Translations under genes and position numbers: made by a program
The notes under the pieces: model-generated
The model's database searches: none
What the model was told of the DNA's origin: nothing
What the model saw: the letters and a program-made list of their open reading frames with translations, nothing else
Part shown: positions 40,311-64,000 of the stretch, piece after piece
How positions within the stretch are numbered: position 1 is the stretch's first letter
Layout of the letters: each line of letters opens with the position of its first letter
NCBI GenBank assembly: GCA_044892525.1
Contig: CM097886.1
Coordinates: 76,570,001 to 76,634,000, forward strand
Source of the DNA: Schmidtea polychroa
Lineage: Eukaryota
Length of the DNA stretch: 64,000 nt
Reading direction: 5' to 3'

Positions 40311-40559
40311 AACTTTATATTTTACCATTCGTATTTTGGCTTTCACCATTTAGGGATTCATATTTTATGAGTTCGAAGGTTACATTTTGCACTTTACAGG
40401 TTTTCGTCTACGATTTTCAATTTTTTATCTTACAGTTTATAAATTCATACTTTAGAAGTTCTCATCATACACTTTATAATTTATAAATTGTTTATTTAAC
40501 ATTTTACCATTTTATATTTTTTACTTCCTAATTTTCTATTTTCAGATTTATAGTTTCAT

Positions 40560-43883: not shown

Positions 43884-43959
43884 CTTTACATATACATATA
43901 TGTTAATAATAATTACTTGGCTTTATTTACAATTTATTTACACGGTTATTTTGTCTCAT

Positions 43960-44727: not shown

Positions 44728-44818
44728 ATCTACAAAAATATACATATCATATTTCCTTTTGTCTTCTTTTTATTCTGAATTTTTCGGTTTTGTAATTTTT
44801 ATTTGGTTTTGGTTTTAT

Positions 44819-44819
<1 letters not shown>

Positions 44820-44862
<43 letters not shown>
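44820..44862 (-). repeat. 43-nt poly(A) tract (element sense strand)
   Basis: T43 on the plus strand, ~33 nt past the stop of the 44895 ORF. Confidence 0.9.
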
Positions 44863-44894
44863 CATTCTTATTTACAGGCAACATCTCCCTTCGA

Positions 44895-46493: not shown

Positions 46494-46575
46494 TGTCTAA
46501 ATAATTACACTATTACTACCACTATTATTTCATACATTTATTATCTACACTTTATACACGGAATTTTAATTTTTG

Positions 46576-47754
46576 TTATTGATCGGCGTAGCGGAATCCT
46601 TTGATTCGCTGCGCAATCCTCTGTCTGCACATCGGACATTCCTTTACTTTTCTACTACATGTGGCACATGCGATCAAATGTCCGCATGGCATATGAATAA
46701 CTTCTACACTCCTCTCCCAACACATAGTACATTTGATATCTCGTAAGATAGCTGTTTTGACCATTGATTCTTCTTTTATTTTTGTTTCAGGTTTTTCTCT
46801 ATACTGGGTTATCGCTCTGATCATATCGTACGTTGTTGTTGGTATATGTACATTTTTCTGTAGTTTCTCTCTAATCATGTTCTTTGCCCTTGTCGTGCCT
46901 ATTCCGGCTGCTTTCAACGCTCTGCACATGTTGGGTTTGTCTACCACTTCGTCAACCTCTTCCTCTGTTACTAGTACTTCCGGATATTCGGTTTCTTGTT
47001 CGTTGTGATATAGGCACCATGCTTGATGTCTAATTTCTGGTATGCCTTCTTCCGGTAATCTCTGTTGGCTTTCGCATCTTTCACACTTTAGTATTTGATT
47101 TTCTGTTAGGTAGAACCCTCTTATTGCTAATTCAGGTCCTCTCGTATCATCTCCGAACGTTTTCATTCTATTATCTGCTATTTGCGTGAGGAATTCCCCT
47201 TCACAAGTTGGAACATACTCATCAACGATTCTGGTTATCGCGATGCTCATTTTCCCTCCTTTTTCGTCTTCAGTTTTCAATTTCTCCAAGGCTTCGTATT
47301 TGATTTCCGGTTTGTTGTGTACATCAAATCCCAGTACGAATAGACAAGTTGGGAATCGTCTACGATGTTCCTCCTTTGGGTGTTCTCCTTTTTTCCATTC
47401 TGCTAATTTCCCTTTACAGAAACGACATGTTACTTGATCGGGTATCTCTGGTTTTCCGGAGAAGAAAAATCCGTCGCGTGCTAGCGCTCGGCTCTGTTCC
47501 TTGGTGAAAATGGTCTGATGTTCAAATGACAGATATCTCTGGTTCTCACATCTGAATTGTTCATTATCTCCCAGTTTCAAATTTTCGTGTACCCAATTAT
47601 AATCGTTTCCCATTCTCCGATAATATGCGTAACTACTTGGTTTTGTTTTGCTGACTTCCGCATCCTTCACTCTTTCTCTAGGTGACATATTGTCCTCTTC
47701 CTCTCTCATTGTGATCGTTTTCTTTCGGATATTCGGTCTCTCTTGATTAATCAT
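46576..47754 (-). CDS. Inhibitor of apoptosis protein (BIR + degenerate BIR + UBA-like + RING), intronless
   Basis: LARDGFFF...VTCRFC...W..GEHP.EEHRRRFPTCLFV; C-terminal RING CTMC...PCGHLIACATC....CPMCR. Confidence 0.92.
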   Translation of the reverse strand: MINQERPNIRKKTITMREEEDNMSPRERVKDAEVSKTKPSSYAYYRRMGNDYNWVHENLKLGDNEQFRCENQRYLSFEHQTIFTKEQSRALARDGFFFSGKPEIPDQVTCRFCKGKLAEWKKGEHPKEEHRRRFPTCLFVLGFDVHNKPEIKYEALEKLKTEDEKGGKMSIAITRIVDEYVPTCEGEFLTQIADNRMKTFGDDTRGPELAIRGFYLTENQILKCERCESQQRLPEEGIPEIRHQAWCLYHNEQETEYPEVLVTEEEVDEVVDKPNMCRALKAAGIGTTRAKNMIREKLQKNVHIPTTTYDMIRAITQYREKPETKIKEESMVKTAILRDIKCTMCWERSVEVIHMPCGHLIACATCSRKVKECPMCRQRIAQRIKGFRYADQ

Positions 47755-47894
47755 CTATAATAAATTTCATCATTTCTTTTTACATTTTCTTTTTCTAATT
47801 TTTATGGTTTTGGCAAGTTACTTTACTGTATACAATAACTTTATATTTACTTTACGTCGTTTTTACAAAATATTTACAGTTCCCTCCTATCCGT

Positions 47895-49319
47895 CTATCG
47901 TATTTCTATTGTTGGTCCTTCCTCATCTAGTTCGATTAGGAAGAATATAGTGTCCTTTTCTATGTAGGACCCTTCATTAAATTGGTATAGCTGCATAAAC
48001 TCTGCTACTCCTACCGCAGGATTAACCTCTGTAATCGGTTTATTCCCTGCTGGACTGGATGCTCGAAAACACATTATATGTGTCTTTTTTGCTCCTAAGA
48101 GAGATATTTTTAATCTATGTCGGAATGGCCATGCTATTAGGTCGTCAAAATCTCCTTTACAAATTTGCATATATATGGACATGCACCGATCTTTAAACTT
48201 TCCTTCACCATTTGGAAACCATCTCAATTTCATCTTGTATCCATGTTTCTTGGCGTAGAATGGTTTGCTCACTATCGTTGTCTGGATTCCTTGCTTTGCT
48301 TGCTCCATTATTTCCGTTATTCCTTGGATTTTCCACATGTATGGTAGTATTGGTAGTTCCTCTGTTGTCAGTTCCTTTGTAGTCCATTTGGTTTGTAATT
48401 TAGTTACTTCGACTAATTTGTCGTCTAATTTCAACATCCTTTGTGTTACGGCTTCTCTCGTATTTTCGAAGCTTTCCTGTGAGCTCAGCATTTCTTTTAT
48501 CATGATTTTATGTGATTTGAGTTCGTCTTTGACGTCTTCAATTGCTCTTGCTGTTAACTCTATTGCTCTCATCATCTTTTGCATGTGCTCGAATGTATTC
48601 TCCTCCACATGCTTCTTCATTTCTTCTGCTGGTAATTGTGCTCTACAGTCGAATGTCACCATTGGGCATTTTATTGCTTTTCTCGTGCATATCTCCCAAT
48701 GTTCATTTAATCTGACGTTGTTAATTTCTCCACACTCGTTTGGGCATTTCCCTGTATATTCGTCGCAAATCCGTCTTTCTACTGCGTTTCGATGTTCCAT
48801 TTCGATTTCTCTCCAATTAGCAGTTTCTCCGCAAAATTCGCATTTTTCCGTTCGCGCTTTGCATTCCCCTTTATGTTTGGTTTTCTCTTTTCGTAAAAAC
48901 TTTACCGTGCATGCTTCGCATTCCGATTCTAGATATTCGCATACGTCTGTATGGGCTCTTAACTCCTTTACTCGGCCTGTCCATTCGCATGACCTTTGGG
49001 TGCATCTTATTTTCACTTCTCTGATTTCTCGGTTCATTGCTCTATCCGGTATCGTACCAGTGGGGACCAACTTAAATGCTTCTCCACATCCTGGACAAGT
49101 TTCTCGTTTTAGTCTGGCTAATCTTATATCACACCCTCGGCACAATCTACACCCGCATCGAGTTTGACTTGCTCCAATTAATAATCTTCTACATGCTGTA
49201 TCGGCACATAATAATCTCTCTTCGAACTCGTCCGGCTCGGCTTGGTATTTTCTCATCAACTCATAGTTAATCTTTTGTTCCTCTGCTTCTCTCCGGTTTT
49301 CCTCTGCTTTGTTTTGCAT
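47895..49319 (-). CDS. TRAF-like protein (RING, TRAF zinc fingers, coiled coil, MATH), intronless
   Basis: CGCRLCRGC..TCPGC, DRAMNREI, CEWTG...H..VC, MATH YMWKI..SKPFY..GYKMKLRWFPNG..SIY..ICKGDFDDLIAWPF. Confidence 0.93.
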   Translation of the reverse strand: MQNKAEENRREAEEQKINYELMRKYQAEPDEFEERLLCADTACRRLLIGASQTRCGCRLCRGCDIRLARLKRETCPGCGEAFKLVPTGTIPDRAMNREIREVKIRCTQRSCEWTGRVKELRAHTDVCEYLESECEACTVKFLRKEKTKHKGECKARTEKCEFCGETANWREIEMEHRNAVERRICDEYTGKCPNECGEINNVRLNEHWEICTRKAIKCPMVTFDCRAQLPAEEMKKHVEENTFEHMQKMMRAIELTARAIEDVKDELKSHKIMIKEMLSSQESFENTREAVTQRMLKLDDKLVEVTKLQTKWTTKELTTEELPILPYMWKIQGITEIMEQAKQGIQTTIVSKPFYAKKHGYKMKLRWFPNGEGKFKDRCMSIYMQICKGDFDDLIAWPFRHRLKISLLGAKKTHIMCFRASSPAGNKPITEVNPAVGVAEFMQLYQFNEGSYIEKDTIFFLIELDEEGPTIEIR

Positions 49320-49408
49320 TCTACAATGATGATTTTTAATCTTGGGATTTCTACTTGATTATAACTCTATTTATTTACAGGATTATTTACATTTCACTCC
49401 TTTTTCTC

Positions 49409-49864
49409 CTACACATCTACCGTCGAGTCCGGTTCCCCTGTTCCTGGTAACCCGGTCATCCACTCGACTAAACTGGTAATATCATCATGTTGTCGATTTT
49501 CATGCAACCTTCTAATTTCTTCCGCTTGCCATCTGATTTGGCTTATTAACTGATTGTTATTATACTCTAGTTGCGCGATTATTTGGTGTTGTTCCTCTAT
49601 TTTTGTAATATATATTGCATTTCTATTAATACTCTCTATCAACGCCGTTTGGTTTCGTACCCAGTGCTCTTGAGTCTGATTTGTCAATTGGGTCATTAAT
49701 TCACACTGTACCCTCCACATGGATCCTGTTGGCTGACTCGGCTGGTTTGGCACGTTCATTTCCATCATGTCTACTGGATGTACATTCATAAGCGGCTGTT
49801 CTCTTACTTCAACAACATGTGGTATCCTATTTGGGTGTTCTTGCTCTTCGTTTCTCTGGTTCAT
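49409..49864 (-). CDS. 151-aa small coiled-coil accessory protein
   Basis: Intact ORF, Q/N/E-rich heptads; tattataaatag-ga-ATG. Confidence 0.6.
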   Translation of the reverse strand: MNQRNEEQEHPNRIPHVVEVREQPLMNVHPVDMMEMNVPNQPSQPTGSMWRVQCELMTQLTNQTQEHWVRNQTALIESINRNAIYITKIEEQHQIIAQLEYNNNQLISQIRWQAEEIRRLHENRQHDDITSLVEWMTGLPGTGEPDSTVDV

Positions 49865-50012
49865 TCCTATTTATAATACATGGTCATCATACTTGTTTTT
49901 GATTTTTCTACATATTGTTTTAATTTACTACTTTTATTTTGTACATACTACTACTATTATCACTACTTTTATTATTTCATTTATACATTATTTACAACAA
50001 CTCCTCCTCTCG

Positions 50013-51407
50013 TTATACCAGTGTCGCCATGGGGCCGGAATGCAGCGTGCGCATTCCCCCATATCTTTCGTCCGTTATTCGGTATATATCGACTTCGTGT
50101 GTCCATTCGTTCGGTGTGGGTATTCTTGGTAGTTCCGACATCCACAATCCGCTGGATCCGGGATCCTCTACCACCTCGTATTCTTCTAGATTCAGATTCT
50201 CTGTTGGAATACCGTATTCAAATTTTTCCACTTTGGGCCATTTTCTTTGGTTTCTCGGTTTTTGTTTACATCTTTTGGTGGTTCTTATCCACTGAATCAT
50301 TGCTAACGCTATTATCGTGCTTACTATCGCGCTAGTTATCCATATCATCTTTGTGATGATCGTTGTTCCATTATTTGTTTTTTCTGTCGTTAATATTGTA
50401 CTACCTGTGGTATTTGTTTCTGGTGCTTTGATTTTCTTGAATGCTTGATGTAATCGTTCCTTCTCTTTTTCTGTTAGGTGACTGTGATTTTCCCGTTTCT
50501 CTCCCCCTTCTTGATCTCGGGGTATCCACGGTATGTTTATTAATTGGGGTTTTTGTCGAGTTATTGGTTGACATACGCTGGTTCCTCTTCCTTTCTTAAG
50601 GATACATACTTGGTATCGTTCTTTCCGTTTCCCTGTCTCCATTTTAACGTCTGTACCTTTGTCTATCGGTGTTGTTGTACAGTCGATTATTCCCGTCTTA
50701 TCCATTACACATATCCTTATGATTGGTTCTCCTTCCTGGTTTTTGACTGTAATTACCTCTTCACCTTTCTTGTTGAGGTTAATAGTTATCTGCACTTCCC
50801 GTCTTTCGTCTTTAATTACTTCGTTAATCCATGTTGTTGTTGTTATTAATTCGGTTTGATTTTGCTCTGTTGTTGTTTTTGTACTAACTGATTTGTTTGG
50901 CTTCTTGGTTGTTATCCCCCTCAATGGATCTTGTTTCATTGCCATACTCTTTGGCTTGTCTTTTCTTGGTGCAGTTCTTGTTCCTTTACATACTACTATC
51001 CCTTGTGTTCCTGCGCATACCACAGTAGGGGTATTTGGTTTGACCTCTCCCCAGAAGAATTTGTGGTCTTGTGTCATATCAGTTATTATGCATATGTCTC
51101 TGTCTTCTCTGATGCATACATGTGTAATTGATCGACTCCCTTTATCTTCTATTTCGATACCTTCTTCCAAAATGTTGAGTTGAAAATGTACTCCGGTTTC
51201 GTTGGCTCTTTCTAGCTCCATTTCCTCTGTTGATATGTCTCTACAGATGTCATAATCTCCACATAGCCTGGGATCTCTTTTTTGGCTGCTAAAAATCTTT
51301 CCTTTTGTTATCGATCTGAAATCACAACTTACTCCTGTTCCTTCCATTAGTTGCACACATATTCCGACGGCATTTCCGTCGTAATCCTGACTTTTATCAT
51401 AAATACT
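50013..51407 (-). CDS. Type I membrane glycoprotein-like ORF overlapping the polyprotein end (-1 frame)
   Basis: Frame open from 51407; Cys-paired ectodomain, Thr-rich stalk, TM MIWITSAIVSTIIALAMIQWI, tail with Tyr motifs; no own signal peptide or upstream ATG. Confidence 0.75.
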   Translation of the reverse strand, partial: SIYDKSQDYDGNAVGICVQLMEGTGVSCDFRSITKGKIFSSQKRDPRLCGDYDICRDISTEEMELERANETGVHFQLNILEEGIEIEDKGSRSITHVCIREDRDICIITDMTQDHKFFWGEVKPNTPTVVCAGTQGIVVCKGTRTAPRKDKPKSMAMKQDPLRGITTKKPNKSVSTKTTTEQNQTELITTTTWINEVIKDERREVQITINLNKKGEEVITVKNQEGEPIIRICVMDKTGIIDCTTTPIDKGTDVKMETGKRKERYQVCILKKGRGTSVCQPITRQKPQLINIPWIPRDQEGGEKRENHSHLTEKEKERLHQAFKKIKAPETNTTGSTILTTEKTNNGTTIITKMIWITSAIVSTIIALAMIQWIRTTKRCKQKPRNQRKWPKVEKFEYGIPTENLNLEEYEVVEDPGSSGLWMSELPRIPTPNEWTHEVDIYRITDERYGGMRTLHSGPMATLV

Positions 51408-54400
51408 TCACCTTCTTGGGAAGCTTCTCTTACGATTCCCATATTTTTTGTTTCTGTTAAACAGATGGATGTTAATATTATAAATATTCTTTGTAGTAGG
51501 ATTGGCTGGATTTGATTTCGACACACTATGCTATGTAGTGGGGACTTTCGTTTTTTGTTCTCCGTTTTGTCGAATCCTTGATCTTCACCTCGACATTGGT
51601 CTTCTTCGTCTTCTTCCAATTCCTCATCATCACTCGTTGTTTCTCCGCCTTCCGGATTCTGTTCTCTGTCGTTTTCCTCTGGGTTGTTATCGTTATCCCC
51701 CATCCTTTCGTCGTCGTCGTCGTCGTCATTCCTCTCACCCGGGGTTTTCCTGAAAATGTCGTCCTCGACATTTGCTGCTTTGATCATCTCCTCGTATTTT
51801 TTAATTATCTCTTTTTTGTCGTTGTGGATACTTTCTCGTTCTTCTTTGGTTCCTTGATATTTCCGTTGTTTCCGGTGCCATTCCCACACTAGTATTTCTA
51901 GTTGCTTTTTCATCGCATGTGTTTTTGTGCATTCCCACCAATTACCTGTCAATTCTGTTCTATTTCTCTGTAATATTGCTTTAATGGTTTTTGGCATTGG
52001 TGGTCTTGAGTATATGGCGCTTCTTAGTACGATATTTTCGTTGTTTTGGAATTGATTTATATCAATTACTTCCGCTCTTAATTCGTTTTGTTTCCATTTG
52101 ATTAATATTGCTGCGGTTCTGTCTAAGTTTCCTCTGATGGCTTCCAGAATTGGTTCAATGCTCTGTCCCAACACCTCGGCTTCTTCGGTTGTTGCATTTC
52201 CTGTGATAAAGTTCACTATACTAGGTCTTTTTGACCTGACGGCATAACGTAATACGGTTCGTTGTTTGTTATCTTTTTCTTTCAGCGTGGATCCCGTTCT
52301 TAATAATTCTCTGAGTACATCTCTTGACGCGCCTATTGCTATGGCTTTCATCAGTGGAGTTTTTCCTTTACTGTTTTTGACGTTTGTTGATTGTTTGCAG
52401 TTTTCCATTATTCGTATAATCTCTAAAGCTCGTTTTTCTTGTCCTGCTTTCACTGCATGATGGATTGGCCAGTTATTACTCAAATCACTTGTTAGGAACA
52501 TGATTGGTAATCTCCGGATTAGTTCATATATTTGAGTCGGTATTTGTAATCCTTCGGCATATCTTCGTCCTTTCGCATATCTTTCTGCTACTAACATTAG
52601 TTTGCCCAATACTTGGTATTTATTGGTTATATCGGCCCATTCTGGTACAATTTCTCGTGCTATTTTTATTGTCATATTCCATGTTGCTTGGCTCCTTGCC
52701 ATTGCGTCAGCTTCGCTTTCTGCTTCAGTTCCTTTATGGGCGCTGCTGCTTGTTTCTCCTCTCAACATGAATATTCGTCTTGTCTGTGATCTAGTTAATC
52801 TACCGCTTACTTCTGGTTCCGTTGTGGCATTTGTTTGTGATCTCGTGATTATCCTTCTTGTTTCTGGGTCTTTAGTGGCAGTTTTCGCTACTGCTTTGCA
52901 TCGACATGTATTCACATAAATGGGTCTAATTAGTGGATTGTTAACCAACTTCACTCTAGCGTTGTTCTCGTTTACATAGATGATTTCATATGGCCCTCTG
53001 CCATTACGTTGTAATTTCTTTGCTGTTCCTGGGATTAATTCGGGTGTTTCTATAATAACCCAATCTCCGATTTTAAATTGATGGTTTTGCACGTTCTTCT
53101 TTTTATCATGTAATTCCTTATAACTCTCTTGGTTGAATCGGATGTTCATCCCTGCGGTTTTCCATATTTCTTGCATTCTCTCCTTGAACTTTGTCACATA
53201 ATCATCTATCTCCATATATTGTGAGATTGGCGGTTGGTATTCGAGATCCATCGGCATGTTGCATTCCCTTCCATACATGAGTTTAAACGGACTCATTTTC
53301 GTTGCTGAGTGTATTGACATTCGATAAGCCATTAGACACAACTTAATATATTCATCCCAGTCCTTTTGATGTTTACTCACGTAATTGGACATCATGTCTA
53401 TTAGTATGCCGTTAAATCTTTCTGTCTGACCATTCGTTTGCGGGTGGTATGGTGAGGTTCTCAATTTGGCAATTCTAAAATAATTTGTCACTTCATTTAT
53501 TATCTCGCTCATGAAATTAGTTCCTTGGTCAGTTAAGATTTGTTTTGGTGTTCCATATCTGCAGCAGATCTCTTCCACTAATATCCTTGCAACCGTTCGT
53601 GCTTTCTGGTCTGGCATCGCAAATGCTTCAGGGAACTTAGTCAGATAATCAGTTATTACCAATATATACACATTTCCACTGTTAGTCTCTGGTAGTGGTC
53701 CAACTACATCCATTGCAATCATTGTCATCGGTTCTGGCGGTATCGGCATTGGTTTCAATGGTGGCTTTAGTTTACTGCCCGTTGTTTTTCTGGTTGCGCA
53801 TATCAGGCAGTTCTTTATCCATTCTTTCACGTCATCGCTCATATTTGGCCAGTAATATTTCTGTTTGAGCCTTGCTTCTGTTTTCTTGGCTGACATATGT
53901 CCGCCCAATTTACCATCGTGGTATTGAATCATAATTTCTTTCCGTCTACTTTCTGGTAGACACATCAATCGTTTGTCGCCATCCATTACCAATAGCCATC
54001 CTTTCTCGATCGTATATCTGTGACGATTTTTCTCCATGTGTTCTTTTAGTCGATCATCGTTGTTGAATATTTTCATATCGTTTTTTTCCAGGAACTCAAT
54101 TATTAGTTTTAATTCATTGTCTTCCTTTTGTTCGTTCTTTAGATTGGTAAAATCGATATCTTCCGCGATTATCAGGCATATTCGTCTGACGTCATGATCC
54201 ATGAGTTCTTCAAATACAAATCTCGACATGCAGTCTGCATTTGCGTTTGCTTTTCCTGACTTGAATTTGATGTATGGGGAATATTCTTGTAACTGCATTG
54301 CCCATCTCATCAATCGACTAGATGCCTCTTTATGTTGGCCCAACCAAACTAGAGGTTGATGGTCCGTAGTAATAATTATCTCGTGTCCCCATAATAAATA

Positions 54401-57400
54401 TTTGAAATGTTTTATCGCCTGAATTATTGCTAAGGCTTCTCTTTCTGTGACCGAGTAATTCTTCTCGTGTTTTTTGAACGTCTTGCTATAATATCCGATG
54501 ACTCTTTCTCTTTTCTCCTCATCCCATTGTCCTAGCACAGCTCCTGATGCGTATCCACTTGCATCAGTTGCTAATAAAAAAGGCTTTTTGAAATCTGGGT
54601 GGATTAAGATAGGCGAGGCTATTAGTTTATCTCTGAGCGATTCGAAAGCTATTTGCTGTTCCCTTTCCCACAGAAATGGAGTATCTTTTTTTGTTAGTTC
54701 TTGAATTGGTTTTGCGATAGTTGCATAATTTTTGATAAACTTGCGGTAGTATCCGCATAATCCCAGAAATTCTTGTACCTGAGTCACGGTTTTTGGTATC
54801 GGACAATTCTTTATTTTCTCAACGTTTCTCGGATCTGGTTCTTTTCCTTTTGCCGACACAATGTGTCCTAAAAATGTGACTCTCTCCTTTGCCCAGTCGC
54901 ATTTTGACGGTTTCAATTTCAGCTTCCATTGTTTCAGTCTTATGAATACGTTTCTGATGTCGATTAAGTGTTGCTCGAAAGTACCTGAATAAATTAACAG
55001 ATCATCGATATACACCATACATTGTTTGATCCCGTGTGTCACAAAGTTCATACATCTCTGAAACGAAGCAGGTGCGTTTGTTAATCCAAATGGCATCTTT
55101 TTAAACTGATATAAATCTTTTCCGATGGTAAAGGCTGTCTTTTCTCTATCTTCCTCTTTAACTTTAATTTGCCAGTATCCACTCTTTAGATCTAAAGATG
55201 TAAAGTATGCTGCTCCATGTAACATCTGTAACATTTCGTTAATATCTGGCAGTGGGTATGTATCCCTTTTTGTTACTGCATTCAACCTCCGATAATCGAT
55301 ACAAAATCTCTGTGTGCCATCTTTCTTTTTGACCATTACTACTGGAAATTGCCAGGGTGAACAGCTAGGTTCGATCACTCCGGCATCTAACATCTTTTGT
55401 ACCTCCTCCTCTGCTACCGTTTTCTGTGCTTCGGCTAATCGATATGGTCTCAAAGTTATGGGTGTCTCATCCGTTAATGGTATAATGTGTTGCGTTACAT
55501 CGCTGGTACCCAAATCCAAATCTGAAGCCGCAAAAATATCTTTAAACTCAATCAGTAGCTGTCTGAGTTGTTCCTTTTCGTCTTCATTTAGGAGTTCGCT
55601 ATCGATGGTCCATAATTCTTTTTCGTCTGCTCCCTCGCTTTTGATCTCCGGCAGCTCAATGTTCATCATTGGTGTGAGTTTTCCAAGTCTCTCGTTTTCG
55701 TAGATTACTTTATCTTCCTCATCAAAATTGGTGATGTTGATGGGTATCTCGTTATCCTCATTTATACTGACAATTTCTCTTGCCAATGGCAGCTCCCTTC
55801 TCTTCTCGAATTTTTGACTTGGTTCAAATATCATATCTCCTTTGGCTTCGTTATCGACCTTGACATAACATATTGTCTGGGTACGTGCTGGTATTATCAT
55901 TTTTTCGGAGCATCTCACTTCTGTTCTCATTGTGCATATCTGTCCAGTTTTATCTTTTAATTTCATGGAACTTAAATCAATCACAATTTCTTTCAATAAT
56001 TCCGGCATTACATCTGTTCCAATTATACATGATACGCTTAGCTGTCTAATGACTGCGAGGTACGTTGTAACTTTAACCCCTTTGTATTCGATCGTTGACC
56101 ATACTCTTCCTACTACCGCTATGGATTGTTTGCTGCATGTTATTACATCCATGGTTGTCTCCTCAATGCATGGCCATAGTCTTCCTGGTAGCATATTCAT
56201 ATTTATTGCTGAGATATTTGCTCCGGTATCAATCATTGCATCCATCTCTATTCCGTTTACTTCGACCGTGATAGTTAACGATGGTCCTGCTGGTGTCTGC
56301 AATACCGCAATCGTTCGTGTCTCCACCTCTTGCCCCACATTTTTAACTGGCTTGATCATTGTTGGGTCCATTGCTGCCCAATTTGGTTCATACGCCGTTG
56401 GGTAAATATTTGGTACGGGTAATCTCCCGGTTCCCATTCTTATCCGTTCTCTCATTGTCCCTGGTCGTCGCATTGGCCCATTGGTTGGTGCCTGTAAATA
56501 TGGTGATCCCCATGGTTTCCTTTTTTCGTTTTCCCAAGTGTCTGTATTTTTGTTTATCAACATTACTCCTCCTTGATTATTATCGTCATCGTCGAAATCA
56601 TCATTGTCATCACTATCATCGTCTCGTCTGAGATTCATCCACTTTTTCCACTTCCCGGTTCTTTTCGCTTTCTCTTGAGTTCTTTCCGCTTCCAATCTCA
56701 TTATCACTTTGAACTTACGTCCGACTTCTTCATCTGTCCCTTTCATTTGCGTTAATATTTTCAACAATCTTTTTATTCGATGAATATCCTTTGAGTGTCC
56801 ATGCAACACCATTGTTTTCGCTAGGAACGGTAAGAATCCAATTGCAAGTTTCCAATTTACTTTTCTCTCGCGCTTATAGATGTCAAAACATGCTAGCATC
56901 TGAGTTAGTATCACTCTAACTATTTGTATTATCAGAATTATTCCGAGTATCCCTGCCATCATTTGGCCAAATACCAAAAATCTACCCCACATAGCCTTCA
57001 TCATGTTTGCTGTTGCTTGTTGGTAGTGACTTGGTGATAATAATAGCTCGTAGTTCGGGCTCTCCCCATAATTATTTCCTCCAGAAATAGTCACTATATT
57101 TGATAAGATTGCTTGTCTTTGCGCTGGGAATAACAGGTGGGCTCTTGCTGATTCGAGATCTTTTGGTGTATATAATCCACTCTGGGATACGTCTATCGGC
57201 TTGAACTCTAGTTCTGTTGTTAGTTCCGTCAATCCAAATTTCTTGGGCGTTACTACGATTGTTTTACTTGGGAATTGAACCCATTGTCCATCTTCTTTTT
57301 CATACATTGGTCCATATGCATTACTACAATTAAACAGATTTGGTTGAAACCCTACCGGGTTCATTACCCTAGTGACTGCTTGCACAAACCTGGGTTTACC

Positions 57401-60400
57401 TTCGTGGATAATTTCGAGTTCGTTTGCACACTTATCTCTTGGTATTGTAGGGTTTTCTGGCAATCTTGCCATTATCTTTTTGCATTGGTAGGTGTACATC
57501 ACTTCGCCCACGATTCGTCCGAAATATCCTTCCTGTAATGGTAGTAACGGAATTGCGTTATCTGGATTTGTAATCGCCATTGCTAATTTGGTTCTCAGTA
57601 TTTCTTTGTTGAGCAGGCAATCGTTTCTTAACAGATCATGGTAGACTTTTTCCGTGGATGTTAATCCTCTGTGATATAAGAAATCCATCTTATTATTAGC
57701 GTATAAATATAGTTTGACATCCTTTTCGCTTAGTCTTCCGACTGCATTTGCTAGGGTTCTCCGCGACAAGTAGATCCCTTTATAATTGGTGCTGATCACC
57801 ATCTCATCGCATTTACTCACCATTTTGTTCTTTATGAACCTCATTCCTATTCCATCGTCTTTGGAGATTATCGCTGTGGGTGTTACTTCCGATTCCAATT
57901 TCGATGTTATTACGTCTTCTCTGAATCCTTTCCTTGCTCTCAACTCTTCCATCGCTCGTTTTTCTGCTTCTCCTTTTGGTTCACTGTATACTTTCCCTTG
58001 GATTTCTTCGAATATTGCTGTTTTGAGCAACATTAGTCGACATACCTTCTGATCCGCATGGTATACCAGAGTTGACATTCCGGTTGAACATGATCGATCT
58101 GATGCGAGACAACTTGGGTATTTCTTCATTGCTTGCGTGTCAGGGTCGAAATAACCTTGATACCTTTCTAATTTAGCTTCGTAGCTTTCTATCACGACCA
58201 CTCCACTAACCAGTTGTCCGTTCAAGGTGTACGTTCCTGTCTCACATGTTCCGTCTCCTTTAGTGATTCTGCCTGCCGTATACACACGAGTCGTTTTTAT
58301 TTTTCCTGGTTCTGCAGCAATTTCAATCCCTTGCCTTAAGTGGATTCTCCCCGATCGGAATCCTTCCTCGCATTCCTCTCTTGATAGTAATATTACTGTC
58401 GATTCCAATCCCGGTTCTATGATTGTTGAGTGAGAGGATGAACCGCAGTGATGTGCAAATATCTTTCTGGTTACCGTACATTCTTGGACCATAGTTTTGA
58501 TGAAATCTGCTTCTTGATATACGTTGTACGAGACTGATGCCATGACTGTTTGTAATTTTCTTGGGTTTGCCGCTTTACAGTCTTCCGTATCCTTTAATGA
58601 ATATTTCTCATGGATTTTTATGTTGTCGCAGTCGTATACTGCAAATGACTCCGTTCCTTTGATACACATCATCCATATCAATATCGTGGTTATTATGGCA
58701 TTCATTCCCTTTCGACTTGCTCTTGGGTCGTTTATATTGATTGTTCCTTCGAATTCAGTTAGCAAATCGCGTAACTTTGCTTGCATCATTTCCGTTTGAT
58801 CTTTCTTCCCAGTTGATTCGATGAAGCTTCTCCATCCCCCTTGTTCAAGTATATATGGTTCTATTGATCGTTTAATTATTTCTGTTACTGTGAATTCGTA
58901 ACCCGTTGCGTTATATTTTGGCATTCGTTTTTTATATTGGCCGATAACGTTATATACTAAATATGCTAATCCCACTAAAAATCGATTTTGGTCCTCTGAT
59001 CTGCTTAATAGATGTTCCACAATTAATCTGAGTTCCACGGGATCTTTTAACGTTAATCGAATTTTATTATCCATGATTTTCATTATTATCGGTTTCAATA
59101 CTGCCCATAATTGTTTGGCTTCGGTCGGAATATTATCCTTCCTCATGACTCTTTTCACTTCTGGATTTGCTAATGCTAACATGTTGGCTAATAGGTCATT
59201 TATCCATCGTGTCCCTTGTTCTCGGACGCTTGTCTTCACTTTCACTTGTTTTACTAATGCACTTAGTTTATCCATTTTAGTTTTTACCTGCTCCATTTGC
59301 GCCTGAACTTTGGATTTTGGTTCGATCTCTGCTTTATCTGTTTTTGGTCTTCCTCTTGTTCGTCGATCCATAGCTGTTCCGGTTTCTTTCCGTTTTGGCG
59401 GATTGTAAGTTGTATCTTTTGACGTGGTCGCTCCTGGATCTACTCTCCAGTTGCTCCATTCATCGGTTGTGGTTACATCTTTATTGGCATCTCTTTCCAC
59501 GTTATCTAAATCCGTCTCGGCTTCCGTCGTTTCCACTGGTTGTCTCTGCGCGCATACAAATCCATCTAAATCATCAGTTGTCAGTTCACCTTCGTCGATA
59601 AATAGATCTCCTGATTGCGATGCTCTCATAATCTCGCCTGCTTCTACTATCTCTTGTAATTCATCCAGTATTTCGTCTTCTCCCGTTGTTTCGATCGTCA
59701 CTTCACTAACCGCATTTGGAACTTCTGGTGTGTCCAAACTTCCTGGTTGTTGGGTGGATGATTTTTGCTTTATCTCTCTTCTCCTTAGCTCTCTACCTGC
59801 AATTTTACTCACCGTTAATCTGTTCACAATTTCTCCTTGGAGTGGTGTCACACCGATCTCAATATCGTCGTCTAATGATCGTCCCTCGTGTTGTAAGTGG
59901 AATGGGAGTTCATAAGGTATTCTCTTTTTAACTTCTCTGACTTTAGCTGTCGTATAGAATTCCTTTTCCATTGGTTCAAAATCTGGCATGAATATTTTTA
60001 ATTGATATTTCTCAGGTGAGTTTTCGGCCCACTCTTGTTGTTTCCATTTCCGGATGATTTCACCAAATTGTTCAGGGTACCATACGTATACCCGTCGATA
60101 TTCTTCAATCGCTTTAACGATCTTTCGTAGATTTTGAATCCTTTTGCATGATTCGGCTATCCATTTTGCTAGTTCTACCACCGCTCGTCGACGATTTTTC
60201 GCCCCGTTTTGTAATATCTCCATCAACTCCTTACATTTTTGTGCTTCCAACAATGTTGCTGCTTCTTCCTCATCTGCGTCGGCGTCTATTGGTAGATGTC
60301 CTGAATCAGACACTCTTCTCCTCATCATACAGATTCTCGGTTGATTTTCTGGTATGTTCAGTCGTTGGTTCATTTCTTGTTCTGTTTCAACTTCTACTCT

Positions 60401-63400
60401 GATCTGGATAGCATTGTTTTTCACAAATTTTGACTGCTCATTCTCAATGTAACTTAGACGTATTAATTTAGGTGTCCCAGAAGCGATATTTTCTGATGTT
60501 GTTGGTCGTTGATAGCAGGCGCTCCTTGGATCTGGTTTCAATGTTTCTTTATGCATGTTAAGGCTATCTTTCAATGGTTCGATTGCTATCGTCACTTTTC
60601 TGCTAAACGGCCATGGTACCTTGTCGTCATAATTTCCTTTGCAGATGACGAAGAATGCCGACACATAATTTCCTTTACCTATCCCGTCTCCGTTCGGGTA
60701 TATTCGCAATTTCATCTTGTACTCACCTAATCCTGAGTAGAACGGTGGACTTACTAATCGTGTGATTTTCTCTTCCTTTGCTGATTTTATCTTTTCCATC
60801 CAATTCTCAATTTTCCACGTGAATGGTGCTAACCTTACTGGTTCTCGTATCTCCTCATCTTCTCCTGATGGTAATTCATTTTGGAATTCTTGTGGTAATA
60901 TATCCTGGTAAGTATCGATCGGTTTCTCTCTTACCCATACTGCTGCGATCTCTTCGGGTATATTATCTATCCAATTTGGTTCCAACTTTTGCTGCTCCCA
61001 ATCCCATCGAGCTTCACTTTCGATCCACACTTTTTTCCATGGTATCAGTTTGCAATCTTCGTCATTGAAGGCTGCTAGTTTTAGTTTATCATCCTTTAGC
61101 CAATGGTTATAAATATCTATTATTCGATCCATCTTTGCCCTCATTCCCCATTGGAATCTTTTAATTTGTTGCTCGGTTTTCGTGGCGTTTTTGTGCCCAC
61201 CAGATGGTTCATCCATCGCGATTATATTGATGACGGCTCCATCTTCCCAGATTCCTAGTTCGTAAATTACAGTTCGGTCTCCTCTTTCTAGCATGTGCCG
61301 GTTGTACATTATTATCACATCTTCGATCATTCCATCCTCACTATTTTCTCGAGCTTTTTGGATGATCTCTTGATCTATGATTTGCACTAACTCGTCAACT
61401 TGGCAATCGGGATTAACTTCTATTATTTGTTTCTCTTCATTTGGCAACTTCACCTTTATTTTTATCGTTTCATGCTCGCATTTGGTTCTCTCGTATTCTC
61501 CGTATTTAGATATCAATTCTGTCGCTCGTTTGTCTTCGAATCTCATAATTTCCGTGTCTCGTACGTCTTTAACAAATTGTTTCATTAGTTGTGGCCATCT
61601 TTCTCTCAATCTATTAATGTATTTCCTTGTCTGATCGATAGCTTGTTTGACTAAAATTATTTGGTTTTCTTTCATTATTTTTCGTTCGATCTTTTCCAAT
61701 TCTGGTTCTACTTCATTGTTAAACACTTGTTGGATTTTCTTGAACATCTCTGCTACCGAGTCGTCATCCCTGGTTTTCTCTAAGGTTAAGATGTTAGTTT
61801 CGTTTGGCCATATCATCGCATCTACCAAATGTATGCCTATTTTAACTTTGTAACCATCGACATATAATTGTTTATTTTTATGGCTCGTTCCCATTTTTTC
61901 CTGTACCCAGTTGTACAGTTCATCGGTATTTGTTCCTTTTAATTCGATAGTCTGTATCTGAATCTCGGGGTGTTGAATGCTTACTTGATATTGATCTGGG
62001 CCTGCTTCCTTTAGTTTCTCTTTATATTTTGTTGCTAAATCTTTCCATGCTGCCGTTATTATACCTCCTTCACACTGGTATACTTGAGTTATAAATTTTA
62101 AGCATTTTCTGTATGTTAACTCGTTGATGTAGCTCTCATTTCGCTCTATTTCTGTTACTGTGTCGAGAATTTCCTCGAATATCTCTTCTTCATCTTTTTC
62201 TATCATTGATTTCATGTCATCATTTTCACTCTCCTCACTACTTTGAGGTGTTTCACTGTTTGGAGGTGTTTTTGGTTCGTTATTTTCCTCACTTGACTGA
62301 AATAATTCGCCTCCCAGGCTACTCACCTCACTTTTCTCATCTTCCTGATCCGTCTGATCGCTCCGCATTTGTCTCAGCATGTTTATTTTAGCTTTGGTAT
62401 GTGGTTCCTTCTTTTCAAACCACTCATTTTTCCTGAACCAATGCTCTTTCACTTTTTCTTTTATTTGTTCCTCAGTTAATGTAGGATTTTCGTTTTTGAT
62501 TCTGTCCTCGATTTTTTGTAGTAGTACCCTCTGAATTCGATTTTTTGTAACTATCTCATTGCTTTTTGGTTCGTCTTTACTCTCATCTCTCTTTTGTCTC
62601 CTTTCTTTCTCCTCTTTGGTAAATTCTTTAATCAATTGTATTTTCTCTTCACTGCTCAATTCTGTTCGTGGATCGATCTCATTTTCTTTTGTCGTTTTTA
62701 TCTCCTTGTTTATTATCGGTTCACTCCCGTCGTTGTTAACACACTGCTCCGCAGTGTGCGATTCCTCTTTATTTGTTAATCTCATCATATTTATTCTTCC
62801 GGGATTCGCTTCCCGTTGTTTCCATCTTTCTTGAATTTCTCTGGCTTCCTCGTTTTGTAATCTTTGCCATTCGACTCGTTGCTGATCTTGTTGTTGCTTA
62901 CTTGGTTGGTTCCGGATTTCCTCGGTGCTCTGCATCATGTTGATTCGTTGTTGTTGGTTATTAGTCGGTATTCGCAGGATCATATCTTTTAATTGTTCGA
63001 TTTCCTGCATGAGGTTGATTTGTGTGTTCTGAACTGGATTGTTTGATCCTGGTTGATTTGGTTTGGTTCTCATCGTGCATTCTCTTGCCATGTGTCCAGG
63101 CTGATTACAATTGTAGCAGGTTCTGGTTCCTCCTCTGCTCATAGACATCATGGGTCCTCTGCAGACATTTTCCGTGTGGCCTCTTCTCCCACACTTTTGA
63201 CACATCCTTGCTTTATAACATTCATTGCTCCAATGCCCTGGTCGTTGGCATATGTTGCACGTTCGATTGTTGATGTCGTTGTTCCTGAAATTATTAGTAA
63301 AATTTTGAATATTACCTCCATTGTTTTGGTTTCTTGTTTGTGGAGTTTTGAACAACTGTTGCGATCCTGGGATGAATTGATTCATTACTGGATTTGCATT

Positions 63401-64000
63401 ATTGACTTGGTTGTTTGTGGTTGTTGCTGTTGCCGCTGGAGCTGCTGGAGCTGCTGTCATTGCTGCTACTTGTATTGGTGTTAAGTAGGTTTCACATTTG
63501 TTAGCGATTTTTAGTGCTTCTTCCAGCGTCTCTGGTGCTCGGCATCCCAAAGTTGCTCGTATATCCTCCCGTTTCATGCCATCTACGAATACGGCTATTA
63601 TTTTGTCTTCCGGAACTGGTTGATTTGAATCGAAGGCTTCTCGTGCTAGTCGTCTCAATTCGCATGCGTACAGTGCGTTGGATTCGTTATATTTCTGCTT
63701 TCGATGCAGAAAGTCTAACATTTTTCGATTTCCCTCTTTTTCGGTACCGAATGTTTTTATTAAAAATTCCTTGATCTCTTTCCACGTTCTCAACTTAGTT
63801 GCATCACATTTCGCCTCCAAGTATACATCTTGGGCGCTTCCCTTTAGATATAGGGGTATTCGTTCTCGTACGACTATGTCTGGCCAGTGACATATCGTAA
63901 TGTATACTTCGAATTCCTTTATAAACGTTTCCAGCTGGTTTATATTTCCATCGAATGGCTCTCCTCGAAATTTCTCTCTGAATTCTCCAATGTTGACGTG
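51347..64000 (-). CDS. Giant Gag-Env-Pol polyprotein (>4217 aa, 5' end beyond the window)
   Basis: The 4157-aa ORF stays open for 60 more codons to the window end (HVNIGEFREKFRGEPFDGNINQLETFIKEFE...IPLYLKGSAQDVY, capsid-like). Confidence 0.97.
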   Translation of the reverse strand, partial: HVNIGEFREKFRGEPFDGNINQLETFIKEFEVYITICHWPDIVVRERIPLYLKGSAQDVYLEAKCDATKLRTWKEIKEFLIKTFGTEKEGNRKMLDFLHRKQKYNESNALYACELRRLAREAFDSNQPVPEDKIIAVFVDGMKREDIRATLGCRAPETLEEALKIANKCETYLTPIQVAAMTAAPAAPAATATTTNNQVNNANPVMNQFIPGSQQLFKTPQTRNQNNGGNIQNFTNNFRNNDINNRTCNICQRPGHWSNECYKARMCQKCGRRGHTENVCRGPMMSMSRGGTRTCYNCNQPGHMARECTMRTKPNQPGSNNPVQNTQINLMQEIEQLKDMILRIPTNNQQQRINMMQSTEEIRNQPSKQQQDQQRVEWQRLQNEEAREIQERWKQREANPGRINMMRLTNKEESHTAEQCVNNDGSEPIINKEIKTTKENEIDPRTELSSEEKIQLIKEFTKEEKERRQKRDESKDEPKSNEIVTKNRIQRVLLQKIEDRIKNENPTLTEEQIKEKVKEHWFRKNEWFEKKEPHTKAKINMLRQMRSDQTDQEDEKSEVSSLGGELFQSSEENNEPKTPPNSETPQSSEESENDDMKSMIEKDEEEIFEEILDTVTEIERNESYINELTYRKCLKFITQVYQCEGGIITAAWKDLATKYKEKLKEAGPDQYQVSIQHPEIQIQTIELKGTNTDELYNWVQEKMGTSHKNKQLYVDGYKVKIGIHLVDAMIWPNETNILTLEKTRDDDSVAEMFKKIQQVFNNEVEPELEKIERKIMKENQIILVKQAIDQTRKYINRLRERWPQLMKQFVKDVRDTEIMRFEDKRATELISKYGEYERTKCEHETIKIKVKLPNEEKQIIEVNPDCQVDELVQIIDQEIIQKARENSEDGMIEDVIIMYNRHMLERGDRTVIYELGIWEDGAVINIIAMDEPSGGHKNATKTEQQIKRFQWGMRAKMDRIIDIYNHWLKDDKLKLAAFNDEDCKLIPWKKVWIESEARWDWEQQKLEPNWIDNIPEEIAAVWVREKPIDTYQDILPQEFQNELPSGEDEEIREPVRLAPFTWKIENWMEKIKSAKEEKITRLVSPPFYSGLGEYKMKLRIYPNGDGIGKGNYVSAFFVICKGNYDDKVPWPFSRKVTIAIEPLKDSLNMHKETLKPDPRSACYQRPTTSENIASGTPKLIRLSYIENEQSKFVKNNAIQIRVEVETEQEMNQRLNIPENQPRICMMRRRVSDSGHLPIDADADEEEAATLLEAQKCKELMEILQNGAKNRRRAVVELAKWIAESCKRIQNLRKIVKAIEEYRRVYVWYPEQFGEIIRKWKQQEWAENSPEKYQLKIFMPDFEPMEKEFYTTAKVREVKKRIPYELPFHLQHEGRSLDDDIEIGVTPLQGEIVNRLTVSKIAGRELRRREIKQKSSTQQPGSLDTPEVPNAVSEVTIETTGEDEILDELQEIVEAGEIMRASQSGDLFIDEGELTTDDLDGFVCAQRQPVETTEAETDLDNVERDANKDVTTTDEWSNWRVDPGATTSKDTTYNPPKRKETGTAMDRRTRGRPKTDKAEIEPKSKVQAQMEQVKTKMDKLSALVKQVKVKTSVREQGTRWINDLLANMLALANPEVKRVMRKDNIPTEAKQLWAVLKPIIMKIMDNKIRLTLKDPVELRLIVEHLLSRSEDQNRFLVGLAYLVYNVIGQYKKRMPKYNATGYEFTVTEIIKRSIEPYILEQGGWRSFIESTGKKDQTEMMQAKLRDLLTEFEGTININDPRASRKGMNAIITTILIWMMCIKGTESFAVYDCDNIKIHEKYSLKDTEDCKAANPRKLQTVMASVSYNVYQEADFIKTMVQECTVTRKIFAHHCGSSSHSTIIEPGLESTVILLSREECEEGFRSGRIHLRQGIEIAAEPGKIKTTRVYTAGRITKGDGTCETGTYTLNGQLVSGVVVIESYEAKLERYQGYFDPDTQAMKKYPSCLASDRSCSTGMSTLVYHADQKVCRLMLLKTAIFEEIQGKVYSEPKGEAEKRAMEELRARKGFREDVITSKLESEVTPTAIISKDDGIGMRFIKNKMVSKCDEMVISTNYKGIYLSRRTLANAVGRLSEKDVKLYLYANNKMDFLYHRGLTSTEKVYHDLLRNDCLLNKEILRTKLAMAITNPDNAIPLLPLQEGYFGRIVGEVMYTYQCKKIMARLPENPTIPRDKCANELEIIHEGKPRFVQAVTRVMNPVGFQPNLFNCSNAYGPMYEKEDGQWVQFPSKTIVVTPKKFGLTELTTELEFKPIDVSQSGLYTPKDLESARAHLLFPAQRQAILSNIVTISGGNNYGESPNYELLLSPSHYQQATANMMKAMWGRFLVFGQMMAGILGIILIIQIVRVILTQMLACFDIYKRERKVNWKLAIGFLPFLAKTMVLHGHSKDIHRIKRLLKILTQMKGTDEEVGRKFKVIMRLEAERTQEKAKRTGKWKKWMNLRRDDDSDDNDDFDDDDNNQGGVMLINKNTDTWENEKRKPWGSPYLQAPTNGPMRRPGTMRERIRMGTGRLPVPNIYPTAYEPNWAAMDPTMIKPVKNVGQEVETRTIAVLQTPAGPSLTITVEVNGIEMDAMIDTGANISAINMNMLPGRLWPCIEETTMDVITCSKQSIAVVGRVWSTIEYKGVKVTTYLAVIRQLSVSCIIGTDVMPELLKEIVIDLSSMKLKDKTGQICTMRTEVRCSEKMIIPARTQTICYVKVDNEAKGDMIFEPSQKFEKRRELPLAREIVSINEDNEIPINITNFDEEDKVIYENERLGKLTPMMNIELPEIKSEGADEKELWTIDSELLNEDEKEQLRQLLIEFKDIFAASDLDLGTSDVTQHIIPLTDETPITLRPYRLAEAQKTVAEEEVQKMLDAGVIEPSCSPWQFPVVMVKKKDGTQRFCIDYRRLNAVTKRDTYPLPDINEMLQMLHGAAYFTSLDLKSGYWQIKVKEEDREKTAFTIGKDLYQFKKMPFGLTNAPASFQRCMNFVTHGIKQCMVYIDDLLIYSGTFEQHLIDIRNVFIRLKQWKLKLKPSKCDWAKERVTFLGHIVSAKGKEPDPRNVEKIKNCPIPKTVTQVQEFLGLCGYYRKFIKNYATIAKPIQELTKKDTPFLWEREQQIAFESLRDKLIASPILIHPDFKKPFLLATDASGYASGAVLGQWDEEKRERVIGYYSKTFKKHEKNYSVTEREALAIIQAIKHFKYLLWGHEIIITTDHQPLVWLGQHKEASSRLMRWAMQLQEYSPYIKFKSGKANANADCMSRFVFEELMDHDVRRICLIIAEDIDFTNLKNEQKEDNELKLIIEFLEKNDMKIFNNDDRLKEHMEKNRHRYTIEKGWLLVMDGDKRLMCLPESRRKEIMIQYHDGKLGGHMSAKKTEARLKQKYYWPNMSDDVKEWIKNCLICATRKTTGSKLKPPLKPMPIPPEPMTMIAMDVVGPLPETNSGNVYILVITDYLTKFPEAFAMPDQKARTVARILVEEICCRYGTPKQILTDQGTNFMSEIINEVTNYFRIAKLRTSPYHPQTNGQTERFNGILIDMMSNYVSKHQKDWDEYIKLCLMAYRMSIHSATKMSPFKLMYGRECNMPMDLEYQPPISQYMEIDDYVTKFKERMQEIWKTAGMNIRFNQESYKELHDKKKNVQNHQFKIGDWVIIETPELIPGTAKKLQRNGRGPYEIIYVNENNARVKLVNNPLIRPIYVNTCRCKAVAKTATKDPETRRIITRSQTNATTEPEVSGRLTRSQTRRIFMLRGETSSSAHKGTEAESEADAMARSQATWNMTIKIAREIVPEWADITNKYQVLGKLMLVAERYAKGRRYAEGLQIPTQIYELIRRLPIMFLTSDLSNNWPIHHAVKAGQEKRALEIIRIMENCKQSTNVKNSKGKTPLMKAIAIGASRDVLRELLRTGSTLKEKDNKQRTVLRYAVRSKRPSIVNFITGNATTEEAEVLGQSIEPILEAIRGNLDRTAAILIKWKQNELRAEVIDINQFQNNENIVLRSAIYSRPPMPKTIKAILQRNRTELTGNWWECTKTHAMKKQLEILVWEWHRKQRKYQGTKEERESIHNDKKEIIKKYEEMIKAANVEDDIFRKTPGERNDDDDDDERMGDNDNNPEENDREQNPEGGETTSDDEELEEDEEDQCRGEDQGFDKTENKKRKSPLHSIVCRNQIQPILLQRIFIILTSICLTETKNMGIVREASQEGEVFMIKVRITTEMPSEYVCN
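52090..52480 (-). other. Ankyrin repeats (polyprotein domain after integrase)
   Basis: WPIHHAVKAG, NSKGKTPLMKAI, KDNKQRTVLRYAV, EPILEAI. Confidence 0.85.
52900..53930 (-). other. pol: Integrase domain
   Basis: HHCC (H.GKLGGH...CLIC), IAMDVVGPLP, LTDQGTNF, YHPQTNGQTERFN. Confidence 0.97.
54220..55480 (-). other. pol: Reverse transcriptase and RNase H domains
   Basis: RFCIDYRRLN, LDLKSGYWQ, MPFGLTNAPASFQR, YIDD (55001-55012); RNase H TDASG, EREALAI, TDHQPL, NANADCMSR. Confidence 0.98.
55950..56300 (-). other. pol: Aspartic protease domain
   Basis: AMIDTGANIS (Asp at 56228-56230), CIIGTDVM. Confidence 0.95.
56780..58705 (-). other. env: Envelope glycoprotein, chuvirus/Monjiviricetes class III fusion-like, in frame between Gag and PR
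   Basis: Signal MNAIITTILIWMMCIKGTES, then FAVYDC..YSL.D..C, HCGSSSH, C.LNKEIL..KLAMA..NPD, GEVMYTYQC, TRVM..C..GPMY..W, SGLY..DL..LLFP; TM at ~56890-56990. Confidence 0.85.
58814..59225 (-). other. Bcl-2-like domain in the polyprotein
   Basis: BH2-like IEPYILEQGGWRSFIES (58814-58864), BH1-like HLLSRSEDQNRFLVGLAYL, upstream amphipathic helices. Confidence 0.65.
59795..60007 (-). other. Ubiquitin-like domain 3
   Basis: YQLKIF...KVREVKKRI..FHLQHEGRSLDDD. Confidence 0.5.
60385..60826 (-). other. TRAF-type MATH domain in the polyprotein
   Basis: FTWKIENW, SPPFYS..GEYKMKLRIYPNGDG..GNYVSAFFVICKGNYDDKVPWPF. Confidence 0.93.
61220..61468 (-). other. Ubiquitin-like domain 2
   Basis: IKIKVKLPNEEKQIIEVNPDCQVDELVQ...IMYNRHMLE..RTVIYELGIWEDGAVINII. 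Confidence 0.65.
61781..61990 (-). other. Ubiquitin-like domain 1
   Basis: QEKMGTSHKNKQLYVDGYKVKIGIHLVDAMIWPNETNILTL parallels ubiquitin [39 protein letters not shown]. Confidence 0.55.
63075..64000 (-). other. gag: Gag capsid and three CX2CX4HX4C zinc knuckles
   Basis: LHRKQKYNES...Y...LRRLA capsid motif; CNICQRPGHWSNEC, CQKCGRRGHTENVC, CYNCNQPGHMAREC. Confidence 0.95.

Follow-up and report, generated by a model that had tools for sequence, protein, structure and literature searches.

How can a reading frame of more than 12 kb stay open amid decayed transposons, how recently was the element that carries it inserted, and how could the genes behind it be expressed? We studied this in a window of 64,000 nucleotides of Schmidtea polychroa (contig CM097886.1, positions 76,570,001 to 76,634,000), in which the frame, ORF1, lies on the minus strand and is 5′-open at the window edge (coordinates of the features see Table 1). 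The first-pass annotation had noticed 4217 codons without a stop, and this was confirmed, as a span of this base composition should contain ∼288 stops and its two other minus frames hold 400 and 258. Downstream of ORF1, seven further minus-strand ORFs of 151–532 codons reach 42,909. The annotation called these seven intact, which is correct in that none has a premature stop, but is not confirmed for ORF2, which overlaps ORF1 by 61 nt out of frame and has neither spacer nor acceptor. The whole block from 42,909 to 64,000 is 21,092 nt long and 96.6% coding, and its coding strand is 40–47% A throughout; the DNA flanking the element is AT-rich.

Extent, setting and age of the copy

Element-assigned DNA is only the 21.1 kb shown here, because an LTR cannot be defined in the window: a second copy was absent both among the repeats listed and in a self-BLAST of the 64 kb, nor could a pair of LTRs, a PBS or a clear junction of PPT and LTR be found. 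The size of more than 26 kb given at first is thus not borne out by the window, in which 38–42.9 kb is not assignable, and a total length of >26 kb is likely only if the unseen 5′ part and the LTRs are added. TG...CA end pairs of 42,908 with ∼41,858 or ∼37,805 were weighed as LTR limits and neither was proven, there is no purine tract before 42,908, the candidate start of the LTR, and an Rfam scan of the 64 kb returned no match. Base composition shifts past ORF8, where two GC-rich short ORFs differ in composition, and the region 37.8–42.9 kb may be the 3′ LTR.

These two short ORFs (38,170–39,263, minus strand) are also CpG-rich and come after a donor-like site at 39,606 and acceptor-like sites at ∼39,295 and 39,217; one of them ends in what we take to be an AT-hook-like motif, and they are possibly LTR-encoded regulators. 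In the same region, an A-rich 650-bp stretch lies between imperfect inverted repeats (41,858–42,515; a MITE or an LTR end), a run of 30 A occupies 42,147–42,176 on the element strand, and short hairpins cluster at 37,770–37,900, where GC drops to flank level and the element possibly ends.

All neighbouring DNA transposons except the catalytic ORF of a MULE had been described as broken. The hAT and piggyBac-type transposases beside the element are indeed fragments. The MULE has an open catalytic ORF, but its transposase seems to be broken as well, because its FLYWCH ORF and the next upstream piece sit in separate ORFs. This MULE (∼30,895–33,888, plus strand) has 14-nt terminal repeats, which form an array at each end, and is flanked by a duplication of 8 nt, and its FLYWCH ORF continues into an R/S/N-rich low-complexity stretch. 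Elsewhere in the window, a fragment of a CWC22 splicing-factor gene (14,075–14,300, minus strand; E 7.5e-26 to human CWC22), whose upstream frame is unrelated, is a host exon or pseudogene, and a weak BIR-like fragment outside the element (35,556–35,915, minus strand; Pfam E 0.17) is possibly part of a host IAP gene.

For the age of the copy, a random point change creates a stop 5.9% of the time, and the lack of any premature stop over 20,367 coding nt therefore bounds neutral divergence at about 0.25%, a value that ignores indels and mutation bias and fails if the assembly collapsed copies. Together with the full set of catalytic motifs, the absence of premature stops supports the earlier proposal of a recent insertion of an active family, unless copies were collapsed, and speaks for a giant retroelement that was active recently and of which this is a young copy. 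We consider it rather unlikely that the intactness is instead an assembly artefact, with many copies collapsed into one and the frame switch between ORF1 and ORF2 being a sequencing indel. Two N gaps in the window show that the assembly is scaffolded, and Burro-type elements are multi-copy, with short-read limits on large repeats discussed in the available part of PMC6431247. However, the closest published family is listed as a single copy at >98% identity (PMC13524379, available part), and a collapsed sequence would still imply a recently active family of low divergence.

Table 1. Features of the element, in 5′ to 3′ order of its coding strand (positions in the window)
Feature	Position	Strand	Remark
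ORF1, Gag-cargo-Env-Pol-ankyrin polyprotein	51,347–64,000	-	4,217 codons; N-terminus past window edge
Gag capsid (Ty3_capsid, Retrotrans_gag)	63,482–63,958	-	Pfam E 7.6e-7 and 4.4e-7
Three CCHC zinc knuckles, aa 248, 267, 295	63,077–63,259	-	
Two probable further helical plus ubiquitin-like modules	61,205–62,200	-	Alignment; OTU1_UBXL E 0.008 for the second; weak
MATH/TRAF-C domain in ORF1	60,389–60,823	-	Pfam E 4.7e-29; 34% identical to ORF4 MATH
Helical bundle plus ubiquitin-like domain, between MATH and Bcl-2-like region	59,783–60,253	-	Ubiquitin/ISG15 profile matches
Bcl-2-like helical region	58,766–59,293	-	BH2-like stretch only (aa 1709–1738)
Probable internal signal peptide of Env, aa 1768–1786	58,643–58,699	-	By eye
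Env, gB/Monjiviricetes-type fusion glycoprotein, in frame before PR	56,801–58,642	-	Pfam PF24664 E 1e-67
Env membrane anchor	56,906–56,956	-	Hydropathy
Aspartic protease (PR), DTG at aa 2591	56,006–56,272	-	
Conserved domain between PR and RT	55,646–55,945	-	27–34% identical to 6 relatives
Reverse transcriptase (RT), YIDD at aa 2997	54,857–55,333	-	Pfam E 6e-35
RNase H with catalytic motifs	54,281–54,670	-	Pfam E 2.2e-38
Integrase: HHCC, D-D35-E, GPY motif	52,871–53,956	-	
Ankyrin repeats past integrase	52,202–52,465	-	Pfam E 1.3e-9
Hydrophobic signal-like segment, aa 4166–4182, near ORF1 end	51,455–51,505	-	Hydropathy
ORF1/ORF2 overlap, 61 nt, holds frame switch	51,347–51,407	-	Codon likelihood
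ORF2, Cys-rich ectodomain, six sequons, one membrane anchor (50,295–50,345)	50,013–51,407	-	464 codons
Spacer 2>3, 148 nt	49,865–50,012	-	Purine tract, TGTAAATA at +17, acceptor-like AG before ATG
ORF3, no family	49,409–49,864	-	151 codons
Spacer 3>4, 89 nt	49,320–49,408	-	Purine tract, TGTA at +18, acceptor-like AG before ATG
ORF4, TRAF-like: RING-like, zf-TRAF, coiled coil, MATH	47,895–49,319	-	Pfam MATH E 8e-27, zf-TRAF E 1e-6
Spacer 4>5, 140 nt	47,755–47,894	-	Purine tract, TGTA at +17, acceptor-like AG before ATG
ORF5, IAP: one complete BIR, one degenerate BIR-like stretch, C3HC4 RING	46,576–47,754	-	
Spacer 5>6, 82 nt	46,494–46,575	-	TGTA at +18, no purine tract
ORF6, coiled-coil-like	44,895–46,493	-	532 codons; no significant family
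Spacer 6>7, 149 nt	44,746–44,894	-	TGTA at +19; 43-nt A run (44,820–44,862, element strand)
ORF7, basic, coiled-coil-like	43,960–44,745	-	Acceptor-like site precedes second in-frame ATG (44,727)
Spacer 7>8, 76 nt	43,884–43,959	-	TGTA at +18, no purine tract
ORF8, N-terminal signal-like segment, Cys cluster, one membrane anchor	42,909–43,883	-	
3′ region, possibly 3′ LTR	37,805–42,908	-	120-bp tandem repeat, AAT microsatellite, donor-like site 39,606, two GC-rich short ORFs

The ORF1 polyprotein and its junction with ORF2

ORF1 has a Gag capsid and the PR-RT-RH-IN order of Ty3/Gypsy elements, with all catalytic motifs present in RT, RNase H and integrase, and it has a gB-type Env between Gag and Pol, as in the GAG-ENV-POL errantiviruses of HSV/gB type. 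Against the sequences of solved structures Env gave no match, and a scan of bacterial and archaeal genomes for Env gave 27 pattern matches, none of which was confirmed. The signal-like segment of Env is under the hydropathy cut-off, yet it aligns with hydrophobic segments in three of four relatives. Moreover, a model of the ubiquitin-like domain behind MATH (pLDDT 70) resembles Ubl folds with Z 10.5 and rmsd 2.4 Å over 71 residues. In the Bcl-2-like region, ∼34 of the 36 matches to the BH2-like stretch are Bcl-xL chains, at weak E values of 0.47–1.1, and for the single-sequence model (pLDDT 46) Foldseek gave nothing at E ≤ 0.001 and the highest VIA Z, 7.4, was reached with helical proteins that are unrelated. 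A profile built from five sequences of the domain between PR and RT returned seven chance matches, with no dUTPase among them. C-terminal to the ankyrins, ORF1 continues with an acidic stretch and then a second hydrophobic segment.

The motif [RKQ]I[NCF][MLT][MLI] occurs eight times in ORF1 compared with 0.2 times in shuffles, a statistic that is optimistic for a motif defined post hoc from the same sequence, and sites are found past the knuckles, past MATH, past PR, between RNase H and integrase, and past integrase. We infer that these domain borders may be where the viral protease cleaves. Unspliced RNA would be translated into a single polyprotein with no Gag-Pol frameshift, the internal signal peptide would thread Env into the ER, and the Env anchor would put Pol back in the cytosol, and the hydrophobic segment of the Env signal could leave the Bcl-2-like domain tail-anchored. 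Replication would proceed by ordinary LTR reverse transcription and integration.

At the end of ORF1, the frame preferred by codon likelihood is that of ORF1 up to the overlap and that of ORF2 beyond it, with both frames equal inside it, and ORF1 ends 35 residues past the hydrophobic segment. ORF2 has no signal peptide, spacer motif or acceptor of its own. For comparison, four of 5,691 candidates are polyproteins of 3,036–4,029 aa with an Env 36–40% identical to that of the window (P0001–P0004). Past integrase, a signal-like segment and ectodomain are in frame in four of the five relatives of the same integrase branch that extend well beyond integrase, namely P0001, P0002 and P0004 (hydropathy) and P0008 (by eye), but not in P0003. 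Hence ORF2 is probably the out-of-frame tail of ORF1 and not an intact separate gene, an argument that rests on topology because ORF2 has no sequence relatives, and our reading of the junction is one frame break, either real or an assembly error. The second signal past the ankyrins would be the start of a further membrane protein, namely ORF2, put out of frame either in this copy or in this assembly.

In searches with ORF2, the one match among 1.84 billion representatives was a tandem-repeat protein and was rejected as spurious, and the Atlas search gave no usable match. By eye, the C-terminal ectodomains of P0001, P0004 and P0008 are FN3-like. P0008 is a eukaryotic Gypsy Pol of the same clade that is labelled as a Turicibacter MAG protein, probably by contamination.

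If ORF2 were a separate gene, or were reached via programmed recoding, the copy would be fully intact, and ORF2 is open for 464 codons with an ATG that overlaps the ORF1 stop. However, the lack of its own signal peptide, spacer motif and acceptor, and the relatives that keep the C-terminal membrane module in frame, make this improbable. A programmed −1 frameshift was rejected, since no slippery heptamer lies in the overlap and an upstream one would meet a stop.

Spacers and expression of the accessory genes

The accessory genes ORF3–8 include an IAP, ORF5, with Pfam matches to BIR (E 9.5e-16) and RING (E 3e-12), and a search for its relatives gave two mollusc IAPs only. The IAP, the TRAF and the Bcl-2-like domain of ORF1 would keep the expressing cell alive.

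The six spacers between these genes have a regular layout. TGTA is located 17–19 nt past the stop in all six, compared with 17 of 1,125 other stop triplets of the block, all seven occurrences of TGTAAATA in the block fall within spacers, and in four of six spacers a 9–14-nt purine run stands closely before TG. At the downstream side, a T-rich AG lies 0–3 nt upstream of the first ATG in five spacers, and upstream of the second in-frame ATG in the sixth, compared with 89/1,256 control ATGs in the flank and 0/147 inside ORF1 (local-shuffle P 2e-6); by a stricter YAG rule the counts are 4/6 spacers and 14/147 (P 0.002). The acceptor rule and the TGTA window were set after inspecting the sequence, hence these P values, like that of the border motif, are optimistic. 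The spacer motif UGUANAUA is also the Pumilio element. The layout, as we read it from the nucleotides, was not found in the published work consulted on this element type. No published account of Burro accessory-gene expression was found there either, and Grohme 2018 and Lee 2026 may already describe LTRs, accessory ORFs and mRNAs.

The acceptor-like sites suggest, with somewhat better than even probability, that ORF3–8 are expressed from subgenomic mRNAs spliced to acceptors directly before each ATG, and these mRNAs are possibly trans-spliced. The donor-like heptamers AGGTAAG and GGTAAGT are both absent from 42,909–64,000. A tentative extension, which we hold to be possible and less probable than splicing as such, is that the six accessory genes form a host-style operon with fixed 3′-end signals and spliced-leader acceptors, in which the element would use the planarian trans-splicing machinery. 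If this were true, the anti-death cargo of a retrovirus-like element would be expressed apart from its genomic RNA. Each spacer would end the upstream mRNA by UGUA/AAUAAA-like signals and provide the downstream gene with a trans-spliced leader, and put in this form as a host-type operon we judge it somewhat unlikely. The spacers of 76–149 nt are inside the ≤300-bp definition for flatworm operons, and SL trans-splicing has been reported in S. mediterranea and S. polychroa (available parts of PMC12582326 and PMC10899757), the acceptor-like sites adjoin the ATGs, and the missing donor heptamers point in the same direction. However, 3′-end formation inside the element would cut the genomic RNA that is required for packaging, and a cis donor may sit in the unseen 5′ region or in the LTR, with a donor-like site present at 39,606. 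Moreover, UGUANAUA, taken as a Pumilio element, requires no operon.

The other far-reaching reading takes the purine tracts for several origins of the plus strand: a purine tract with TG past the stops would be an internal polypurine tract priming plus-strand DNA, or else a remnant left where genes were captured at the border of PPT and U3. The purine run followed by a close TG in four of the six spacers does resemble a PPT-LTR junction, but the two spacers with no purine tract still have TGTA at the same distance, the purine-tract sites are concentrated in the 3′ 7 kb, a place in which additional priming is of little use, and the candidate LTR start at 42,908 has no such tract; we therefore regard this origin of the tracts as quite unlikely. 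Spliced subgenomic mRNAs remain our preferred reading of the spacers.

Relation to Burro and to planarian errantiviruses

The window element is almost certainly a Burro-type giant Ty3/Gypsy errantivirus of GAG-ENV-POL order, and our overall account, in which the window holds at least 21 kb of the 3′ part of a young Burro-type copy, of a family sister to Smed_errantivirus_6, that would work by the mechanism proposed above, is in our view likely. Its value is that of a near-intact representative of a divergent Burro-type family, with a polyprotein map whose membrane topology and cleavage sites are testable, and with a regular spacer layout that gives a direct RNA prediction for the expression of a row of captured survival genes (IAP, TRAF).

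According to the available part of PMC6431247, Burro of S. mediterranea is >30 kb long, with an internal region of up to 25 kb and an ORF1 of 4,873 aa that comprises Gag with its three knuckles, MATH, Ubl, BCL-2, an Env placed in frame between gag and pol, a dUTPase-like domain and ankyrin, and BIR is described as well; transcript length, RT processivity and packaging are already named there as size limits. The giant ORF is real, but the size that the first-pass annotation presented as raising questions of capsid and processivity is no surprise, and the ORF alone is not news, because the element type is already known. That annotation did not note the family, the probable frame break between ORF1 and ORF2, or the recurring layout of the spacers.

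Compared by published domain description and not by sequence, Burro1–4/GYPSM1 and the window element both have a huge ORF1, a three-knuckle Gag (two or three CCHC knuckles in Burro, three here), MATH (MATH/TRAF-C in ORF1 and ORF4 here), Ubl after MATH, Env before PR-RT-RH-IN, ankyrin repeats, BIR-type cargo (a BIR/IAP gene here), accessory ORFs and an internal region >20 kb (PMC6431247, available part). Burro ORF1 has ∼4,900–5,100 aa with Env in frame; here Env is also in frame, and 4,217 aa are visible of a frame that is 5′-open. Where Burro has a BCL-2-like domain before Env, the window element has a helical region in which a BH2-like stretch with weak Bcl-xL matches is seen, and where Burro has the dUTPase-like domain, between PR and RT, it has a conserved domain with no dUTPase match. 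The window element differs from Burro1–4 in a second TRAF gene, which is complete and lies downstream, in its Ubl modules, of which there are probably three, and in an ORF1 that ends at the frame switch.

Six GAG-ENV-POL errantiviruses of S. mediterranea, of 14.5–18.0 kb and 1–215 copies, are described in the available part of PMC13524379. By eye, against rows of its supplement, Env aa 1820–2079 is identical to Smed_errantivirus_6 at 173 of 260 positions with no gap, and to Smed_2 at 83 of 251, and Env identity among the six families is 27–64% over 15 pairs; therefore, Smed_errantivirus_6 marks a sister family. This nearness to an S. mediterranea element and the AT-rich flank fit a triclad planarian host, as in Burro. 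Both elements carry an Env of HSV/gB type in GAG-ENV-POL order, but one third of the Env residues differ, which means a distinct family or a different host species. The main text of the paper on Smed_errantivirus_6 does not contain the words ‘accessory’ or ‘ankyrin’, whereas the window element has both. The name Burro likewise does not occur in PMC13524379, and we infer that the Smed_errantivirus families are Burro.

The polyproteins P0001–P0004 are like the window element in their RT (53–56% identical), in a helical plus Ubl module and in the integrase branch. In a quick tree of 44 of the 124 integrase matches (a length filter and a maximum of 44 removed the other 80), the window and the four Env-in-frame polyproteins fall in one 8-row branch with SH-aLRT 99; the best integrase matches among shorter proteins are 54–57% identical, with no close planarian sequence among them. 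Unlike the window ORF1, three of the four polyproteins keep the C-terminal membrane protein in frame, and they have no MATH, Bcl-2-like or ankyrin match, and therefore this cargo is something the lineage added to a GAG-ENV-POL plan of wider occurrence. P0001–P0004 also differ in having two or three protease-like domains.

Burro expansion spans land and freshwater planarians, as PMC13465017 states second-hand, Burro1 expression is under PIWI control (PMC8532177), and Burro is mentioned once in PMC11410931, in the available parts of these papers. A functional parallel is the B-IAP of Burro1, a BIR plus RING protein that is reported to aid planarian stem cells by protecting them from caspase-mediated death (Lee et al. 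2026 Dev Cell, via the available part of PMC13465017). Compared by domains only, ORF5 is likewise an element-borne BIR plus RING gene, and a similar survival function is predicted for it.
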